Positions 12,533 to 63,976 of a stretch of DNA of 64,000 nt are shown piece by piece (positions within the stretch are counted from its first letter, which is position 1; each line of letters starts with the position of its first letter). The position numbers and the translations under genes are program-made. Source of the stretch: a phage; assembly GCA_017686895.1 (NCBI GenBank), contig GCA_017686895.1_4521.1. One strand, 5' to 3'. Under the pieces are notes generated by a model, which was not told the origin of the DNA, searched no databases, and saw only the letters and a list, made by a program, of their open reading frames with translations.

Positions 12533-13072
12533 ATGAGAACATTTTTAACTGGACCTTATCTATCCCTGATGAATGCTTTTACACACCATTCTGATGCTAG
12601 AGTAGAAGAAATTTGTAAGAACGGTTATATCCCACCATTTGAAGACGTACTCAAGCAGTACTGTACACTTCGTTTAGACGGCGGCAGACAATCAGGTAAA
12701 TCAATTGCTGTGACTAACTTTGCTGCTAATTGGCTGTATGATGGTGGAACAGTTATTGTTCTTTCTAATACTTCAGCTTATGCTAAAATTTCTGCTGGTA
12801 ACATTGAAAAAGAATTTTCTCGTTATTCTAGCGATGATATTCGATTCCGTTTGTTTACTGATTCTGTTCGTAGTTTTATTGGCAATGAAGGTTATAAATT
12901 CCGTGGATTAACGCTTTCTCGTATTCTGTATATAATTGACGAGCCTATTAAAGCTCCTGATATGGATAAGATTTACGACATCCATATTAAAACAGTCCAA
13001 CACTGTTGCAAAAGCAAATATTGCATCGGCGGTAATGCTCGTCCTCAATTTTTTGTGATTGGAATGCAATGA
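12533..13072 (+). CDS. hypothetical P-loop protein
   Basis: Walker A-like DGGRQSGKS; start at ATG 12533 after AGAGAAATAAT. Confidence 0.45.
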   Translation: MRTFLTGPYLSLMNAFTHHSDARVEEICKNGYIPPFEDVLKQYCTLRLDGGRQSGKSIAVTNFAANWLYDGGTVIVLSNTSAYAKISAGNIEKEFSRYSSDDIRFRLFTDSVRSFIGNEGYKFRGLTLSRILYIIDEPIKAPDMDKIYDIHIKTVQHCCKSKYCIGGNARPQFFVIGMQ

Positions 13073-13377
13073 TGACCGATATTGAAGTTTTTGAGTATTG
13101 TTATAACAGCCCAGTATGCAATAAAAGGGCCCTTGTAGAAAATTACGAGATTTACCATTTTAAACCTAAACGATATCGTTTGACTAAAGGTCCGTTCGCA
13201 GGGCAGCAAGTTCTTTGTACTGCTCCTAATGCACGGTTGATGACTAGTATTCCGCATTTCAAAATGGAATTTATTGATGGGCCATTTAAGGGATTAATCA
13301 CTCAAAGTTTAATGGCGTTTAATTCCGACCCATTTTTGATTAAAGAACAATCCTGGATAAATTTATTTTCTAATTGA
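13069..13377 (+). CDS. hypothetical protein
   Basis: 102-aa ORF overlapping upstream stop. Confidence 0.45.
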   Translation: MMTDIEVFEYCYNSPVCNKRALVENYEIYHFKPKRYRLTKGPFAGQQVLCTAPNARLMTSIPHFKMEFIDGPFKGLITQSLMAFNSDPFLIKEQSWINLFSN

Positions 13378-13383
13378 GGTTAT

Positions 13384-13746
13384 ATGAAAGCATATCAAAT
13401 TCTTGAAGGCACACACAAAGGCACTATTTATTTTGAAGACGGTACTCAAGCCCGGATTATTGTCTCTAAGACTTTTAAAGAAGACGCTATTGTAGACCCG
13501 GAAATTTTCTACGGTTTGAATGCCCGTGAAATTGAAATTGAACATCAACCTAAAGTTAAAATTGAAGGTGGTCAACACCTGAACGTTAATGTTCTGCGTC
13601 GTGAAACTCTGGAAGATGCAGTTAAGCATCCAGAAAAATATCCGCAGTTGACCATCCGTGTATCCGGTTATGCAGTTCGCTTTAACTCTCTGACTCCGGA
13701 ACAACAGCGCGACGTTATCGCTCGTACCTTTACTGAGAGTCTATAA
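13384..13746 (+). CDS. grcA: autonomous glycyl-radical cofactor (GrcA/YfiD-like)
   Basis: C-terminal ~60 aa ([60 protein letters not shown]) carry the RVSGY glycyl-radical motif and look near-identical to E. coli GrcA as I recall it. Confidence 0.85.
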
Positions 13747-13970
13747 TGGCTAAATTGATTATAGAAGGGTCTGAAGATGTTTTAAAATGTTTTGCCGCCT
13801 GGTTTAGTTGCTCAGGCGAGCAATCATTCATTGAAGCATTTAGAATGGGTGATATTACTGGAAACTATCCGGCAACTGATATCACTGTACGTGGATATGG
13901 TATTAATGAGCCTATCCAATTGGTCGAATATGACCTTGCCACCGATGAGGAAATTCCTTATGTCGATTGA
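13746..13970 (+). CDS. hypothetical protein
   Basis: 74-aa ORF, TAATG overlap start. Confidence 0.4.
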   Translation: MAKLIIEGSEDVLKCFAAWFSCSGEQSFIEAFRMGDITGNYPATDITVRGYGINEPIQLVEYDLATDEEIPYVD

Positions 13971-14226
13971 AGATATTAAAGGCTACAAGCCACATACCGA
14001 CGATAAAATCGGTAAAGTGAACGCTATTAAAGATGCAGAAGTCCGTCTTGGATTGTTGTTTGATGCTCTGATTGAAGAAGCATATATCTTGAAAGAAAAT
14101 GAAACAGAGCAACAAACCAAAGAAGATATGGATGCAGTACAGGCTCTTAAGTATGCTAAGCAACATCTAAAAGAAGCCAGCATGTGGGCCTGTCGTGCAG
14201 TATTTCGACCTGAGGAAAAATACTAA
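13960..14226 (+). CDS. hypothetical protein
   Basis: Internal ATG (MSIEDIKGY...) of track ORF 13792..14226, overlapping upstream stop. Confidence 0.4.
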
Positions 14227-14525
14227 TGGCTCAAATCCTATCAGGCTTTGGAACTCATTATGAAGCATCTAGACGCATAACTGAAAGCAATCCTTTTGGC
14301 CTTGTTCCGAAGCACAAGAAAATTCAAAGCCTTGATGACTTTGAGAACCGCCTATGGGCCCTCTTTAATGAGTACAAGGCATATCTGAAAGAAGACGCTG
14401 ACGATTGTCTTGAAGAAGATGAGATTGCGTATTACGAACAACGCCTTGAACAGCTCAAGAACTTCCATCAGGTTCGTGACGAAGTATCTAAAGCAGTTAA
14501 AAAGTTAATTCCTTTCAAAGAGTAG
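14226..14525 (+). CDS. hypothetical protein
   Basis: 99-aa acidic ORF, TAATG overlap. Confidence 0.45.
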
Positions 14526-14553
14526 TTTACTTCTCCTCTAGTTGTGTTACTAT
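14525..14553 (+). promoter_or_regulatory. early promoter inside a 12-bp perfect palindrome (approximate coordinates)
   Basis: GTTTAC, 17 bp, TGTTACTAT; CTCCTCTAGTTG ... CAACTAGAGGAG inverted repeat whose right arm contains the regB RBS GAGGAG. Confidence 0.55.
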
Positions 14554-14581
14554 AGTCTTGTCAACTAGAGGAGAAATCAAA

Positions 14582-15040
14582 ATGACTATCAATTCGGAAG
14601 TTTTTATCCGCCGTAATAAACTCCGTCGAATCTTTGAAACGGAGTTCCGCAAAATAAATGCCGGTATAAAAGATGCTGCAAAGTCTCTTGGACTACCAGG
14701 CTTTCATATCAAGTATTCTCAACATCTCTTAGATCGTGCCATCCAGAGAGAAATAGATGAGAATTACGTTTTTGAATTATTTCGTAAAGTAAAAAATCAT
14801 GTTAAAGAAGTTGCAGAATTTTTATCAATGCCGGCACGTCCAGATGTTGATGAAGATTTTGTCGAAGGTGTCGAATATCGCCCAGGCCGTTTAGAAATAA
14901 CTGATGGAAATCTTTGGTTAGGACTTACAGTCTGTCGCGAAAATCCAGCATTCAAAATGAAGACTCTTCAATGCAGAATGGCTATTATTAACAGTAAACG
15001 ACTACCAGGAAAAGCTTCTAAAGCAGTGATTAAAATCTAG
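14582..15040 (+). CDS. regB: site-specific endoribonuclease RegB
   Basis: MTINSEVFIRRNKLRR...YSQHLLDRAIQREIDENYVFELF... matches T4 RegB along its length as I recall it. Confidence 0.9.
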   Translation: MTINSEVFIRRNKLRRIFETEFRKINAGIKDAAKSLGLPGFHIKYSQHLLDRAIQREIDENYVFELFRKVKNHVKEVAEFLSMPARPDVDEDFVEGVEYRPGRLEITDGNLWLGLTVCRENPAFKMKTLQCRMAIINSKRLPGKASKAVIKI

Positions 15041-15048
15041 AGGTAAAC

Positions 15049-15591
15049 ATGAGAAAAGCACTACTCGCTGGTCTATTTGCTCTTTCGTTATCAGCACATA
15101 GCTCCGAGCATACTTTTAGTAATGTCCAACTCGATAACTTGAATTATGCTTATCAGTTTGGGGAACAGTTTTCTAAGGACGGAAAATTTAAAACGCATGA
15201 AAATATGCATAAGAAAGGACTTGGATACATAATGGCCGCAATACTATGGCAAGAATCATCCGCAGGTATTAATCTTAAAGATAAGAAAGGTCACCATGCG
15301 TATGGAATGTTCCAAAACTATCTACCAACAATGAGGGCAAGAATTAACCAGCTTGGTTATAATATGACTGATGCCCAAATTAAGAAAATGCTATCTAAGC
15401 GGTCTAATTCAGCAAGATGGGCTTATATCGAATTTTCTTATTGGTTAAATATACATAACGGGGATATAAGAAAAGCTATATCCTCATATAATGCGGGGTG
15501 GAAGACAAGTGCTGGAAGTAAATATGCTTCTGAAGTCCTAGAAAAGGCTAATTACCTTAAATCAAATAAACTACTGGAAATAAAAGAATGA
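15049..15591 (+). CDS. secreted lytic transglycosylase-like protein
   Basis: Signal peptide MRKALLAGLFALSLSAHS; SLT-like ILWQESS and AYGMFQ motifs. Confidence 0.5.
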   Translation: MRKALLAGLFALSLSAHSSEHTFSNVQLDNLNYAYQFGEQFSKDGKFKTHENMHKKGLGYIMAAILWQESSAGINLKDKKGHHAYGMFQNYLPTMRARINQLGYNMTDAQIKKMLSKRSNSARWAYIEFSYWLNIHNGDIRKAISSYNAGWKTSAGSKYASEVLEKANYLKSNKLLEIKE

Positions 15592-15935
15592 CCAAAATGT
15601 TAGCTTTAATAGTTGGCTTGGTTTCATTTAACGCTCTTGCTAATACTACATATACTGATGTAACGGAGTATACAAACAGAACGGCGTCTGATTATTGTGG
15701 TAAAAGTCAAGAGTGTAAAGTAGATTTTTCACAAAAATTGTTATACGCGTATAAAGACGGAGAAAAAGATGGGGCGTCTAGTAGGTTCAAGGCGTCTACC
15801 TTAATTAAAAGATACTATAAAAAATGGCAAATATTAGAATGCTCGGTGGCGGAACCTAAAGATAAGGCAGCATGCAATTCTATGGTGGACCGTCTAGTTG
15901 ACTCTTATACTAGAGGACTTGTAGCAAGTGATTAA
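15588..15935 (+). CDS. secreted hypothetical protein
   Basis: Signal peptide MTKMLALIVGLVSFNALA; Cys-containing mature region. Confidence 0.45.
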   Translation: MTKMLALIVGLVSFNALANTTYTDVTEYTNRTASDYCGKSQECKVDFSQKLLYAYKDGEKDGASSRFKASTLIKRYYKKWQILECSVAEPKDKAACNSMVDRLVDSYTRGLVASD

Positions 15936-16395
15936 AAACTATATCAAGGGCGATATTGTCGCCCTGTTTTCTAAAGGTAATAATATTGCTCATGGGTGCA
16001 ATTGTTTTCATACAATGGGCGCCGGTGTAGCAGGTCAATTAGCAAAGGCTTATCCAAAAATTTTAGAAGCCGATAAACTTCAAACCGAATTCGGAGACGA
16101 GTCTAAACTTGGGACTTATTCGGTTTATGAAAAATATTTTAAGACCCATAAAGCTTATTGCTTTAATCTTTATACACAGTTTGAGCCGGGACCTAATTTT
16201 GAGTACTCTGCTTTAATGAATTGTATAATAGAATTAAATGAATTCGGAAAAAATAAGATAACAAAGCCTGTAATTTATATGCCAAGAATTGGTGCAGGTA
16301 TTGGTGGTGGAAACTGGGATGTCATCGAAGAGATTTTAGATACGTATTCCACTAAACTAGAAATTGTGATTGTTGATTGGGAACCATTGTTATGA
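15928..16395 (+). CDS. macro-domain-like protein (ADP-ribose binding/hydrolase family, tentative)
   Basis: HGCNCFHTMGAGVAGQLAKAYP resembles the TARG1/MacroD-type glycine-rich loop; GTG start. Confidence 0.45.
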   Translation: MIKNYIKGDIVALFSKGNNIAHGCNCFHTMGAGVAGQLAKAYPKILEADKLQTEFGDESKLGTYSVYEKYFKTHKAYCFNLYTQFEPGPNFEYSALMNCIIELNEFGKNKITKPVIYMPRIGAGIGGGNWDVIEEILDTYSTKLEIVIVDWEPLL

Positions 16396-16598
16396 GCCAA
16401 ACAAAAATTCTTACAGGTGCTAAATGCGAAAAATGCGAATGGCCTGTAGTATTTGCTCTATGCAATGACGAAATGGCCTGTGATTTTGATTATTGGTGTT
16501 ACTGTTCGAACAAAGGTTGTAGCAATCATAAAGGTGAAGGGTTTTACTCAGGATTTTACCCTTACCCAGATTTCGTTAAAGAAGGTGAACCTAAATGA
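16392..16598 (+). CDS. small Cys-rich (zinc-binding) protein
   Basis: CEKCEW and CYCSNKGC pairs; ATGA overlap. Confidence 0.45.
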   Translation: MSQTKILTGAKCEKCEWPVVFALCNDEMACDFDYWCYCSNKGCSNHKGEGFYSGFYPYPDFVKEGEPK

Positions 16599-16777
16599 AA
16601 TTGACTAAAGAAGAGAAAACTAAACTGTTCGAACTTATCCATGACCTATTGGATGAGCAAGCAGCCACTAATGCGTACGATGAATATGCTCCTTTAACAG
16701 ACGAAGAATATCAAGCATTGATGGAATCATTTGACAGGAAAGAACAAGAACTCATTGACTACGTGAATTCACTATAA
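16595..16777 (+). CDS. hypothetical acidic protein
   Basis: 60-aa ORF, ATGA overlap. Confidence 0.45.
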   Translation: MKLTKEEKTKLFELIHDLLDEQAATNAYDEYAPLTDEEYQALMESFDRKEQELIDYVNSL

Positions 16778-16786
16778 GGGACTCTT

Positions 16787-17368
16787 ATGGCTAGTTTAAT
16801 TTTTACCTATGCCGCTATGAACGCTGGTAAGTCTGCTTCATTACTTACTGCCGCACATAACTATAAAGAACGTGGCATGGGTGTATTAGTTCTTAAACCG
16901 GCTATTGATACTCGCGATTCAAAAGGTGAAATAGTCTCCCGTATTGGTATTCGTCAGGATGCCAATATAATTACAAAAGACATGGATATCTTTGAATTTT
17001 ATAAATGGGCTGCAGCACAAAAGGATATTCACTGTGTATTTGTTGACGAAGCTCAGTTCTTAACTACTGAAAAGGTGTATCAACTTAGTCGTATTGTTGA
17101 CATATACAATGTGCCGGTAATGGCATACGGACTACGAACAGATTTTAAAGGTAATCTATTTGAAGGTTCTCAAGCATTAATGGCTATTGCCGATAAGCTT
17201 GTTGAACTTAAAGGTGTCTGTCATTGTGGTAAAAAGGCCACTATGGTAGCTAGAGTCACGGAAGATGGACTTCCAATTACAGATGGTGGACAAATTGAAA
17301 TTGGTGATACCGATAGATATGTGTCGTTATGCCGGAAGCATTGGAATGATTTGACAGGGTTGTTATAA
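16787..17368 (+). CDS. tk: thymidine kinase
   Basis: MASLIFTYAAMNAGKSASLL P-loop, zinc ribbon CHCGKKA...LCRKH; 193 aa, colinear with T4 Tk. Confidence 0.95.
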   Translation: MASLIFTYAAMNAGKSASLLTAAHNYKERGMGVLVLKPAIDTRDSKGEIVSRIGIRQDANIITKDMDIFEFYKWAAAQKDIHCVFVDEAQFLTTEKVYQLSRIVDIYNVPVMAYGLRTDFKGNLFEGSQALMAIADKLVELKGVCHCGKKATMVARVTEDGLPITDGGQIEIGDTDRYVSLCRKHWNDLTGLL

Positions 17369-17371
17369 ATA
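17364..17371 (+). promoter_or_regulatory. late promoter core TATAAATA
   Basis: Exact T4 late-promoter octamer about 25 bp upstream of the ORF at 17396. Confidence 0.5.
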
Positions 17372-17395
17372 CTAATATCTAACCAAGAGGTATAT

Positions 17396-17608
17396 ATGCA
17401 GCAATTAAACGAAAGACAACTTCGTAATCTTACTGTAACCCAATTGGATGAAATCCGAAGAGAATTAGGACATTCTATTTCTCATTTAAACGAGGATATC
17501 CGTCAAACTGGTTCTAAAGCTGATTATACACGCAAGCGCAAGCTGGAAAAATACCTCGAAGATGTTAAGGCCGTCCAAAGGCGAAAAATAAATACTGGCC
17601 AAAATTAA
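17396..17608 (+). CDS. hypothetical basic protein
   Basis: 70-aa ORF with AAGAGG RBS directly upstream of rI. Confidence 0.5.
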
Positions 17609-17620
17609 CAGGAGGCCTAT

Positions 17621-17923
17621 ATGGCCTTAAGAGCGATAGCCATTGTGGCGATGCTGGGGTTTTTTGCAGCAACGACTCCTATTGTTGGCACTGCATATGT
17701 TGACCCATACTTTGATAACTTTATGGAATCAGGGATTAAAAACGTATATACTTTGTTCGAAATTCAAAATGTTGAGAATTCTGAAAAATTTTATAAGTAT
17801 ATGGCAAAGCATTACAAAAATAGCCCCTGTGATGATGCATTTGAATGCCAGGAACAAGGCATAAAAACTGCCAGACAATTTGCTGAGTTCATGAAAATAA
17901 AATTAGAGCCTACATCTATCTAA
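17621..17923 (+). CDS. rI: lysis-inhibition regulator rI
   Basis: MALRAIAIVAMLGFFAA... then DPYFDNFMESGIKNVYTLFE...; resembles T4 RI in length and sequence. Confidence 0.9.
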   Translation: MALRAIAIVAMLGFFAATTPIVGTAYVDPYFDNFMESGIKNVYTLFEIQNVENSEKFYKYMAKHYKNSPCDDAFECQEQGIKTARQFAEFMKIKLEPTSI

Positions 17924-17929
17924 TTTACT

Positions 17930-17958
17930 AGCCCCTTCCTTATGGTTGGGGCTTTTTT
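17930..17958 (+). terminator. intrinsic terminator
   Basis: AGCCCCTTCC-TTAT-GGTTGGGGCT then TTTTTT. Confidence 0.6.
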
Positions 17959-17968
17959 GTATCTATCA

Positions 17969-17997
17969 GTTTACTTCTCCGCAGGTTGTGTTATAGT
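17969..17997 (+). promoter_or_regulatory. early promoter (approximate coordinates)
   Basis: GTTTAC, 17 bp, TGTTATAGT. Confidence 0.5.
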
Positions 17998-18024
17998 AGC
18001 CCTTACTTACTAGAGGAGAACGTT

Positions 18025-18204
18025 ATGACACGTAAAGAAAAGATTTCTAAGTTAATGTTTTTAATTGAAGAGTACGCTAATGCGGTATCTGATTGGGAAA
18101 ATGCTCATGGTTGCGAAGATGGAGACATCGACATTAACAGAGCTATGAAAAAGATGGCTGACGCCCACACCGAATTGCAAATGTATGTTAACGAGATTAT
18201 GTGA
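18025..18204 (+). CDS. hypothetical protein
   Basis: ATG 18025 after AGAGGAGAA RBS. Confidence 0.45.
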   Translation: MTRKEKISKLMFLIEEYANAVSDWENAHGCEDGDIDINRAMKKMADAHTELQMYVNEIM

Positions 18205-18211
18205 GGACATT

Positions 18212-18418
18212 ATGCTTTACGATTATACTGGAAAATCTGAAGACGGTGTACTTGAACTTTTACCTGAAAGCGCTGAAGATGATGATATGGTGGTGATGTT
18301 TTGTAAAAATGGCCCTGGGGATAAGGGATGGATTTATCTTCGTCAAGAAAATGACCTAATTGTTTTGGACCCTAAACAAGTTGAAGAACTTTATCAACAT
18401 TTAAAACACAATCGGTAG
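18212..18418 (+). CDS. hypothetical protein
   Basis: ATG 18212 after GTGAGGA RBS. Confidence 0.45.
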   Translation: MLYDYTGKSEDGVLELLPESAEDDDMVVMFCKNGPGDKGWIYLRQENDLIVLDPKQVEELYQHLKHNR

Positions 18419-18447
18419 TTTACATCTTGGTAGGACTATGATATAGT
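18418..18447 (+). promoter_or_regulatory. early promoter inside a palindrome (approximate coordinates)
   Basis: GTTTAC, 18 bp, TGATATAGT; TAGGACTA / TAGTCCTA inverted repeat. Confidence 0.5.
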
Positions 18448-18475
18448 AGTCCTATCAAAACGAACGGAGAACAAA

Positions 18476-18586
18476 ATGAAACTTTTGCTTATCGCTTATG
18501 TTGTAGTACAATACAATTATCCGATGTTTACTTATAACGTGGTAAACGGCATAGTGAATCTTATTGAAACGAGTATGGTAAAATGA
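18476..18586 (+). CDS. small hydrophobic ORF (36 aa)
   Basis: ATG after ACGGAGAA RBS; below the 60-aa track cut-off; hand-counted. Confidence 0.3.
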   Translation: MKLLLIAYVVVQYNYPMFTYNVVNGIVNLIETSMVK

Positions 18587-62357: not shown

Positions 62358-62533
62358 ACAGAATAGTAAAATGGTTTAAAAGCTGGAATGATGGAGTCGG
62401 ACCAGAAGATTGGTTAGATGCTCTTGAAGAGAATATGGCTAAAGAATTCCAGAAACATGAAGAAAAACTCGTCGAAGATGAAGGCGAACGTATTGTAAAA
62501 CTTTATATGGGTGAACCATCGAGGAAATTATAA
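62354..62533 (+). CDS. small acidic ORF (59 aa)
   Basis: ATGA overlap upstream and TAATG overlap downstream; hand-identified below track cut-off. Confidence 0.3.
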   Translation: MNRIVKWFKSWNDGVGPEDWLDALEENMAKEFQKHEEKLVEDEGERIVKLYMGEPSRKL

Positions 62534-62997
62534 TGGATGCTATGTTATTTAAAATGTATTTGCTTGAAGCCAAGTCATTTAAACATATACCAGTAGAAGA
62601 TAAGACTCCACTAGAAATAGCTATTCTCATTAACAAAAGTCTAAATAATCCGCAATATATCGTAGAAGAATTCTGCAAATTGCAGATTCCTAAAGGTTAC
62701 AAAATTCGTGTAGAGCGAGTTGGAGCTATTACTCATTCTAAAAATTCTCCGTTTAGTCTTGAAGAAGGCATAAAGGACTTAGGGTATGAATCTACAGAAA
62801 ATGCTGTTTATGTGAATCCTGAAAAGCGTTTAGACCTGTTTGAAAAGCGAGACCATACGTATTTTGCCAAAAAATACTTTATTACATCATTAGCAGATTT
62901 AATCCATTTGCAACGAGCTATTTGGAAATTTTTTAAGACAAAAGGTGTAGCACTAGAAACATTCTCTGAACCTGCTAGTTTTTATTTAGGTGAATAA
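62533..62997 (+). CDS. hypothetical protein
   Basis: 154-aa ORF. Confidence 0.5.
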   Translation: MDAMLFKMYLLEAKSFKHIPVEDKTPLEIAILINKSLNNPQYIVEEFCKLQIPKGYKIRVERVGAITHSKNSPFSLEEGIKDLGYESTENAVYVNPEKRLDLFEKRDHTYFAKKYFITSLADLIHLQRAIWKFFKTKGVALETFSEPASFYLGE

Positions 62998-63394: not shown

Positions 63395-63976
63395 ATGACA
63401 TGTCAATCTGAACTTCAAGAACGCGAATATCTCGCAGCACTAATTGATGATAAATTCACTAAACAAGAACAAAACATTCTCTGGGCTTGCACTGATTATA
63501 AGGAAGACCCGGATTTCCACTATGAATTAGACCATCTTGTTCGTAAGCATATGACTTCTACAGTACCAGTAGAACTCTACCGTGGTGTAACTCCAGAAGA
63601 AGTAGAACGTCTTTCCCTTCTTTCTGTTGGATGTCATTGGTCTCCCGGACGAGTAACATCGTTTACAACAGACTTTGGTACGGCCAGACAGTTCTCTGGG
63701 AGTTGGGAATATCAAACGTACACTATTCTTAGTCTCAGGAATGCTCCGTTCATTTTCGATTACTACCAAAACATGGTTAACATTGTACTCGCCGGAAAGA
63801 ACCCTAAGCATGTTATGGAAGAAAAACGTGTTGACGTCCTAGATATGATTGAATCTGAACAAGAATACATGGTCTCAGGTATCTCTAGATTTGAGATTGT
63901 AGAAATTGAAGACTTAGAATATGACCCTTTATCTCGGTTATACAAAATCATTCATTTGAAAATGTTGAATTTTTAG
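63395..63976 (+). CDS. ADP-ribosyltransferase (ModA/ModB-like)
   Basis: Candidate R-S-E triad: LYRG, SFTTD, EQEYMVSG; 193 aa; sits where T4 has modA/modB relative to soc and 56. Confidence 0.55.
   Translation: MTCQSELQEREYLAALIDDKFTKQEQNILWACTDYKEDPDFHYELDHLVRKHMTSTVPVELYRGVTPEEVERLSLLSVGCHWSPGRVTSFTTDFGTARQFSGSWEYQTYTILSLRNAPFIFDYYQNMVNIVLAGKNPKHVMEEKRVDVLDMIESEQEYMVSGISRFEIVEIEDLEYDPLSRLYKIIHLKMLNF

Follow-up and report, generated by a model that had tools for sequence, protein, structure and literature searches.

Positions 15049-16395 of a 64,000-nucleotide stretch of phage DNA (GenBank assembly GCA_017686895.1, contig GCA_017686895.1_4521.1; the whole of this stretch is here called the window) are occupied by three plus-strand open reading frames (ORFs) that directly follow regB. 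Judged by homology and gene order, this block consists of the orthologues, in a Mosigvirus-type T4-like phage, of the T4 genes vs.1, vs and tk.4, which lie between regB and tk and are all non-essential according to the T4 literature (Table 1). An earlier annotation made from the letters alone (the original prediction) had described the block as three coupled genes after regB; its coordinates proved exact, the junctions do overlap and regB lies directly upstream. The products show 83% (Vs.1), 67% (Vs) and 85% (Tk.4) identity to those of the T4 reference NC_000866, and the stretch 14558-17368 is ~99% identical to Escherichia phages TH12 and CCU7 and their relatives. In LR027383, a Mosigvirus record that uses T4 gene names, the order is vs.3, regB, vs.1, vs, tk.4, tk.3, tk.2, tk, rI.1, rI. 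Protein-level homologues of Vs.1, Vs and Tk.4 occur in 2053, 796 and 2800 phage records, respectively, so these ORFs are not the product of chance. The stop and start codons overlap as ATGA (vs.1/vs), GTGATTAA (vs/tk.4) and ATGA (tk.4/tk.3). The overlap of the three genes is thus real, yet it is ordinary T4 early-gene packing, since overlapping junctions run on past the end of the block into tk.3 and tk.2. We consider it likely that vs.1, vs and tk.4 form two units, namely a pair of exported proteins (Vs.1 and Vs) and a cytoplasmic anti-DarT2 protein (Tk.4).

The first protein, Vs.1, matches PHROG 600 (3.7e-67), a family that bears no function label, and had been proposed to be SLT-like on account of the motifs WQESS and AYGMFQ. 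Family-1 lytic transglycosylases are defined by E-S, G-L-M-Q, A-Y-N-A-G and Tyr motifs, the GH23 pattern being a catalytic Glu in E-S followed by G-[LM]-x-Q and [AS]-Y-N-x-G. A total of 128 Vs.1 homologues were gathered, and 36 of them, with identities down to 40%, were aligned. Both motifs are present, with Glu69 lying within WQESS and Gly86 and Gln89 within AYGMFQ, and the complete pattern can be read as E69-S70, G86-M-F-Q89 and S146-Y147-N148-A-G150. The residues E69, G86, Q89, N90, Y147, N148, G150 and Y159 are invariant in the 36 homologues, while position 70 is always Ser or Thr. Pfam SLT (PF01464) was matched at E<=0.01 by 33 of the 36 family members (best value, 1.3e-7). The AlphaFold2 (AF2) model of Vs.1, with a predicted local distance difference test score (pLDDT) of 90 and low values confined to the signal-peptide segment, has the lysozyme-like all-alpha catalytic fold of GH23/SLT enzymes; when it was compared with PDB using Foldseek, the top hits were all GH23 enzymes, but their E-values were weak (0.015). 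The SLT-like fold was therefore retained after profile and structure comparisons, in keeping with a 2006 comparison of T4-like genomes that reported a marginal SLT match for every vs.1 orthologue, together with an A1pp hint (PMC1524935). Identity to GH23 family 1 enzymes (the small 'specialised' enzymes EtgA and MltE, which have signal peptides, and the catalytic domain of Slt70) is ~12-20%, and the Vs.1 family has an extra N-terminal helix and a loop at residues 40-58 that these comparators lack. Unlike them, Vs.1 is encoded by an early gene of a lytic phage and is neither a virion protein nor an endolysin; its activity is predicted. Enzymatic action on glycan strands through Glu69 is what we infer for this protein. 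It would be made with a cleavable Sec signal peptide and sent to the periplasm, where the predicted mature form (162 amino acids, 18.7 kDa, isoelectric point 9.6) would most likely be a small GH23 (family 1, SLT-type) lytic transglycosylase, with Glu69 as the single acid/base catalyst cutting the bond between N-acetylmuramic acid and N-acetylglucosamine (MurNAc-GlcNAc) of peptidoglycan.

To see what accompanies Vs.1, the next ORF was inspected in each of 70 viral-contig loci containing Vs.1 homologues. In 56 of them, over Vs.1 identities from 100% to ~42%, this ORF begins -8 to +7 nucleotides from the Vs.1 stop. Two of these 56 paired ORFs are truncated; the 54 full-length ones encode 99-122 amino acids, with a signal sequence and exactly four Cys after residue 22, and a hidden Markov model of Vs was matched by 50 of the 56 (E <= 6e-5). 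Acinetobacter phage PhT2 has the pair too, with neither regB nor tk.4 next to it; two more signal-sequence ORFs and then rI follow there. The 3-kb surroundings of 48 Tk.4 loci were surveyed as well: ~25 showed a T4-like context, and in ~23 Vs.1, Vs, RegB and Tk were all missing from those 3 kb. Because the pair holds in 56/70 loci while Tk.4 often stands alone, the conserved unit is the translationally coupled, apparently exported Vs.1 and Vs pair, with tk.4 a separate, presumably cytoplasmic counter-defence gene. Even in T4-like phages that are distant from one another the two genes remain neighbours and coupled, so Vs probably works with Vs.1 or regulates it in the envelope. Two candidates were set aside: in Kuttervirus S118 the Vs.1-like ORF is followed by a gene with no relationship to Vs, and a Vs.1-macrodomain linkage in the Felix O1-like phage UAB_69 was rejected on reading, with no profile test, the 154-amino-acid product of the neighbouring gene (gp005) lacking the HGCNC motif. 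Related phages also carry a third signal-peptide ORF of 133-145 amino acids, with two Cys and a mature N-terminus of the form W-E/D-x-L/I-P-G-Y-P. This ORF lies between the Vs-like gene and tk.4 in Enterobacter/Citrobacter-type phages and follows the Vs-like gene in Acinetobacter PhT2; it has no Pfam match and is absent from the window.

The second protein is the orthologue of T4 Vs (PHROG 1256, matched at 6.5e-35; PF26829), which it equals in length and position. The annotated partner of T4 Vs is cytoplasmic, whereas the features found here (a signal peptide, four Cys, lipoprotein variants and coupling to Vs.1) point to the periplasm. The label 'valyl-tRNA synthetase modifier' is uniform in phage records. 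Classical work on T4 vs by Muller and Marchin is cited in PMC8076793, and deletion of vs impairs the growth of T4 in minimal medium. The family is small, with 7 matches among 1.8 billion representative proteins and 43 by profile. The N-termini of both Vs.1 and Vs have one or two basic residues (Lys/Arg), then 10-13 hydrophobic residues as the core, and small residues at -3/-1; in Vs.1, a K/R n-region and a 13-residue core lead to an A-H-S site (AHS before SE), and in Vs the region closes with ALA before NT. In the 36 aligned Vs members, the N-terminal 18-25 residues keep a signal-peptide pattern with a small-x-small end without exception; the pattern was likewise seen in 36/36 Vs.1 homologues, despite changes in the residues of that region in both families. 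The signal peptides previously proposed for the two proteins thus look real. Cys37, Cys43, Cys85 and Cys96 of Vs are invariant in the 36 aligned members, and a C-terminal motif, S-M-V-D-R-L-V-D-S-Y-x-R-G-L, is conserved. In phages having no tblastn match to Vs, or a match of just 28%, the Vs position is held by a protein of 106-108 amino acids that hhalign relates to Vs with 98% probability (E 1e-13 to 1e-14), the four Cys being aligned.

One clade of these distant homologues carries a lipoprotein signal (...ALSGC before K, i.e. the lipobox LSGC followed by Lys) instead of a signal peptidase I site. This would be the strongest comparative argument for an extracytoplasmic Vs family, since a lipobox has meaning only in an exported protein. 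At two loci (L023 and L091) the lipobox-clade gene is broken by a frameshift or stop into pieces of 65 and 61 amino acids. The AF2 model of Vs (pLDDT 87) has four helices arranged as a small bundle, and a fold search with it returned no specific fold relatives. Export of Vs is most likely, judging from these patterns; the cytoplasmic location that binding to valyl-tRNA synthetase (ValRS) needs is at odds with the predicted export features. The exported protein would be an 11-kDa four-helix bundle, its four invariant Cys probably forming two disulfides. The predicted mature Vs has 97 amino acids and 11.0 kDa and the precursor has 12.9 kDa, and the purified T4 factor, reported to be ~10 kDa, is nearer the former. 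Possible ways out of the conflict with ValRS are that the factor was mis-assigned, that Vs has a dual location, or that the two associate only after cell breakage. The suggestion that the first two genes specify periplasmic proteins active on the cell wall probably holds for the SLT-like Vs.1; the second protein turned out to be the Vs orthologue, and nothing shows it acting on the cell wall.

Insertion data available for T4 (bioRxiv 10.1101/2025.11.20.689424, supplementary file 7, Data S8, LB versus M9 medium) fit the separation of Vs.1 and Vs from tk.4. In LB, insertions in vs and vs.1 averaged 26.6 and 22.6 reads per TA site, respectively, the values for their neighbours being 128 (tk), 179 (regB), 290 (tk.4), 652 (vs.3) and 767 (tk.3). 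In M9, relative to LB, the log2 fold change was -2.19 for vs (adjusted P = 0) and -0.87 for vs.1 (P = 0.0055; adjusted P = 0.155), while tk.4 was unchanged (-0.07); vs.1 and vs therefore share a fitness signature. Insertions in a-gt (-1.04) and b-gt (-0.64) were also depleted in M9, and those in dda (+1.71), nrdA/nrdB and td were enriched, so vs is not the sole medium-dependent gene of T4.

The third protein, Tk.4, had been assigned a macro fold on motifs, and profile searches bore this out: it matches Pfam Macro (PF01661) with 28.3 bits (1.9e-6), above the gathering score of 22; 20 of 20 aligned homologues match that family too, and the ADP-ribose-binding loops M-G-A-G and I-G-x-G are conserved. 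Used as a single sequence against PDB, it matched BT1257 (6.5e-11), yeast Poa1p, SCO6735, the DarG proteins of T. aquaticus and M. tuberculosis, and TARG1; a profile of 18 phage Tk.4 homologues matched BT1257 (4.9e-16), TARG1 (7e-15), SCO6735 (6e-12), M. tuberculosis DarG (1.2e-11) and Poa1p (1.5e-11). Human TARG1/OARD1, yeast Poa1p and Bacteroides BT1257 (2FG1) are thus the best matches by both sequence and profile. These matches place Tk.4 as a true macrodomain of the TARG1/DarG/BT1257 clade. Compared with T4 Tk.4, the window protein is 85% identical over all 155 residues and lies, as in T4, between vs and tk.3; both have Asn25 and Gln84, and nothing of substance differs between them, as expected of an orthologue in a Mosigvirus-type genome.

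The window protein was aligned with T4 Tk.4, 16 other homologues, PhiKZ gp104 and human TARG1 (the sequence used being 100% identical to PDB 2LGR) by means of MAFFT and also hhalign. The macrodomain of DarG (T. aquaticus 5M31/5M3E, M. tuberculosis 5M3I) and PhiKZ AdfM resemble Tk.4 in clade, in the active-site Asn and, going by T4 genetics, in being an antidote to DarT2. Unlike DarG, Tk.4 has no C-terminal DarT-binding domain, no adjacent darT (its neighbours are vs and tk.3), and Gln84 in place of the catalytic Lys. Position 84 is Gln in 17 of 18 T4-type homologues, that of T4 included, and BT1257 also has Gln there; Gly126 aligns with TARG1 Asp125, so that the Lys84/Asp125 dyad of TARG1 is Gln84/Gly126 in Tk.4. 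Residues 5-153 match the DarG models of PADLOC (PDLC02990, 9e-9) and NCBIfam (NF048014, 8e-8) in the macro part only, the NCBIfam match covering positions 4-146 of 338 with 31.9 bits against a cutoff of 250. Tk.4 is thus an orphan macrodomain that is DarG-like in action according to T4 genetics and departs from DarG in three respects: the Lys, the C-terminal domain and the darT neighbour. Its matches on plasmids are stand-alone macro proteins or SLOG-fused proteins, none of them annotated as DarG.

The genetic evidence comes from T4, in which tk.4 was the single gene depleted in a transposon library grown on a DarTG2 host and in which a clean tk.4 deletion sensitises the phage to DarTG2, the gene being named adfM (bioRxiv 10.1101/2025.11.20.689424, a 2025 preprint); a further anti-DarTG2 factor in T4 had been predicted earlier (PMC11825919). 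The AdfM of PhiKZ (gp104), which does contain the Lys, strips ADP-ribose from DarT2-modified DNA in vitro, and its N23A variant is less active (PMC13309987). We propose that cytoplasmic Tk.4 would guard the phage's DNA against the host toxin DarT2 during replication; thymidine-linked ADP-ribose would most likely be taken off or neutralised, through a mechanism that we infer to be Lys-independent. As T4-type AdfM lacks the Lys of DarG, TARG1 and PhiKZ AdfM, it would use a different macrodomain chemistry, or binding rather than hydrolysis. The original prediction had paired Tk.4, as an eraser of ADP-ribosylation, with a Mod-like ADP-ribosyltransferase at 63395 as the writer. The latter assignment is upheld by a match to PHROG 832 (9.5e-37), and the ORF has no match in local Pfam or NCBIfam; upstream of it, at 62533-62997, lies Mrh (PHROG 1234). 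The eraser half of the idea is backed by the DarTG2 data from T4, the target there being ADP-ribosylation of DNA written by the host. Since deletion of T4 tk.4 sensitises the phage to DarTG2, this host-made DNA modification, and not the marks made by the phage's own Mod/Alt, is the best-supported target.

Several points weigh against this division into an exported pair and an anti-DarT2 macrodomain. The window Vs.1 itself matches Pfam SLT at E = 1.3e-3 and 18.8 bits, under the gathering threshold of 21.3, no SLT chain in PDB was matched by the sequence profile of the family, and muralytic activity has been reported for no Vs.1. With similarity this weak, Vs.1 might be catalytically dead or a non-lytic peptidoglycan binder, one that anchors Vs or serves as an envelope sensor, for example; moreover, it is non-essential (T4 tolerates insertions at 46/52 TA sites of vs.1), and an active periplasmic murein hydrolase made early would risk lysis too soon. 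We regard a dead Vs.1 as unlikely, however, since all the family-1 catalytic-motif residues stay invariant even where homologues share as little as 40% identity, as would be expected if catalysis is under selection. With respect to Vs, export was called from a heuristic scan and comparative patterns rather than by a dedicated signal-peptide predictor, its four Cys could alternatively bind zinc in a cytoplasmic protein, and classical work gives it a cytoplasmic partner, ValRS. Vs could then be the cytoplasmic ValRS binder of its annotation, with an N-terminus that is no export signal (or a partial one), with metal-binding Cys, and with adjacency to vs.1 as mere synteny. This would agree with the uniformity of the annotation, with the classical genetics and biochemistry of T4 vs and its ~10-kDa factor, with the harm that vs deletion does in minimal medium, a setting in which the capacity for translation might count, and with the placing of the four Cys near one end of the bundle in the AF2 topology, which would be compatible with a metal site. 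We find it doubtful, though far from negligible, given that every homologue keeps the signal-peptide pattern while the sequence of that region drifts, that one clade has switched to a lipobox, and that coupling to an exported enzyme is strict in 56/70 loci. A further-reaching proposal, which we find attractive but would hold only tentatively, is that Vs is above all an exported protein, disulfide-bonded and periplasmic or, in one clade, an outer-membrane lipoprotein, and serves as a partner dedicated to Vs.1 (its regulator, inhibitor or localiser); the ValRS label would then be secondary or mis-assigned, and the pair, conserved in T4-like phages, would be an early envelope-remodelling unit that matters when nutrients are poor.

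The fitness signature shared by vs.1 and vs could also be due to a polar effect of vs.1 insertions on vs. With respect to Tk.4, the catalytic Lys and Asp of TARG1/DarG are missing, hydrolysis by a T4-type protein is deduced from a phenotype, and the anti-DarTG2 result was obtained in T4, not in the phage of the window, and comes from one preprint. That Tk.4 instead balances the phage's own Alt, ModA and ModB, by removing ADP-ribose or RNA-linked ADP-ribose from host proteins, would suit the presence of the Mod-like enzyme in the window (PHROG 832, 9.5e-37), the action of cellular members of the TARG1/Poa1p clade on protein- or metabolite-linked ADP-ribose, and the absence of the DarG Lys, without which the chemistry of Tk.4 need not be DarG-like. 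Nevertheless, the sole experimental phenotype of T4 tk.4 is a specific sensitisation to DarTG2, insertions in tk.4 prove neutral in both LB and M9 when no DarTG2 is present, the gene is unlinked to mod or alt in the genome, and macrodomains of this type occur in 2800 phage records of many genera (the Mod/Alt content of those phages was not examined); an eraser of the phage's own marks thus seems improbable. We give even less credence to the proposal that vs.1, vs and tk.4 make up one functional module, in which cell-wall action would serve the same process as ADP-ribose removal; we think this very improbable. Start and stop codons do overlap throughout, and T-even phages of enterobacteria keep the order regB-vs.1-vs-tk.4, but the overlaps reach on into tk.3 and tk.2, as is ordinary in T4. 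In addition, about half of the surveyed Tk.4 loci (~23/48) have neither Vs.1 nor Vs within 3 kb while Vs.1 and Vs are adjacent in 56/70, PhT2 has the pair without Tk.4, the predicted compartments differ (periplasm versus cytoplasm), and so do the T4 phenotypes (M9 for vs, DarTG2 for tk.4).

Table 1. Coordinates of the features discussed. Positions are those of the window, except in the last two rows, where L numbers denote other loci.
Feature	Position	Strand	Remarks
regB, site-specific endoribonuclease, upstream neighbour	14582..15040	+	Pfam REGB_T4 7.2e-69; regB in LR027383
vs.1 orthologue	15049..15591	+	Precursor of 180 amino acids; putative exported GH23/SLT-like lytic transglycosylase
Predicted Sec signal peptide of Vs.1	15049..15102	+	MRKALLAGLFALSLSAHS, then cleavage before SEH
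Glu69-Ser70 codons of Vs.1	15253..15258	+	Predicted catalytic E-S motif; from the alignment, codons checked
vs orthologue ('valyl-tRNA synthetase modifier')	15588..15935	+	Precursor of 115 amino acids
Predicted Sec signal peptide of Vs	15588..15641	+	MTKMLALIVGLVSFNALA, then cleavage before NTT
Span with the four invariant Cys codons of Vs	15696..15875	+	C37 15696, C43 15714, C85 15840, C96 15873
tk.4 orthologue (= AdfM)	15928..16395	+	155 amino acids, GTG start, no signal peptide; predicted cytoplasmic orphan macrodomain
Asn25 codon of Tk.4	16000..16002	+	Equivalent to T. aquaticus DarG Asn22 and PhiKZ AdfM Asn23; invariant in homologues
Gln84 codon of Tk.4	16177..16179	+	Position of the catalytic Lys: TARG1 K84, DarG K80, PhiKZ AdfM K78
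tk.3, downstream neighbour	16392..16598	+	Cys-rich zinc-binding protein of 68 amino acids; Pfam Phage_zn_bind PF23895, 4.6e-29
Mod-like ORF	63395-63976		PHROG 832 'RNA polymerase ADP-ribosylase' 9.5e-37; also PHROG 26695
Lipobox-clade Vs homologues	L018/L020/L021/L023/L024 about 2262-2588; also L087-L089, L091, L112		
Third signal-peptide ORF of related phages	L018 2585-3004; L013 2604-3008; L054 2582-3007		

Some neighbouring elements were also noted. For regB, homology favours the ATG at 14582 as the start, the mechanical ORF beginning with TTG at 14558. Just upstream of this gene, at 14531-14575, lies a perfect 14-bp inverted repeat (CTCCTCTAGTTG... / ...CAACTAGAGGAG) that, as RNA, would fold with -21.3 kcal/mol (z = -4.4) and pair the regB Shine-Dalgarno sequence GGAG; its loop contains a -10-like hexamer, TATAGT, with GTTTAC upstream. 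Transcripts coming from further upstream would hide the ribosome site in this hairpin, and a start inside the loop would expose it. A terminator-like hairpin (AGGGCGATATTGTCGCCCT then GTTTTCT) at 15947-15965, 20 nucleotides into tk.4, lies over the conserved K-G-D-I-V-A-L-F codons; it may simply result from the coding sequence, or it may weakly decouple the vs.1-vs pair from tk.4. No RNA family was found by an Rfam search of 13000-18500, and a promoter/terminator scan was uninformative, promoter-like sites being fewer than in shuffled sequence. Between tk.3 and tk.2, LR027383 and many close relatives have a gene of ~209 nucleotides, RB32ORF111c, that is absent from the window (junction near 16595), which is why many near-identical matches align in two pieces. 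Just downstream of tk are rI.1 (17396-17608) and rI (17621-17923; antiholin PF24205, 5.7e-24; PHROG 'lysis inhibition'), so that three proteins predicted to be targeted to the envelope (Vs.1, Vs and RI) are encoded within 3 kb; only two genes separate the Vs.1-Vs pair from rI in Acinetobacter phage PhT2.

The finding is real but mostly already known, since vs.1, vs and tk.4 are T4 genes for all of which there are published annotations or hints. The block should therefore be annotated as vs.1, vs and tk.4 (adfM), and not as a new secreted or ADP-ribose module. As the T4-type AdfM has no catalytic Lys, T4 must withstand DarTG2 through some other chemistry of the macrodomain, or through binding instead of hydrolysis. 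What is new is solely the clash between the export signals of Vs and its cytoplasmic annotation: Vs has carried a cytoplasmic label for fifty years, against conserved export signals and its locking to an exported transglycosylase-like gene. Should Vs in fact act in the envelope, asking why vs matters in minimal medium and asking what an early periplasmic murein enzyme does in T4 infection would become one and the same question.

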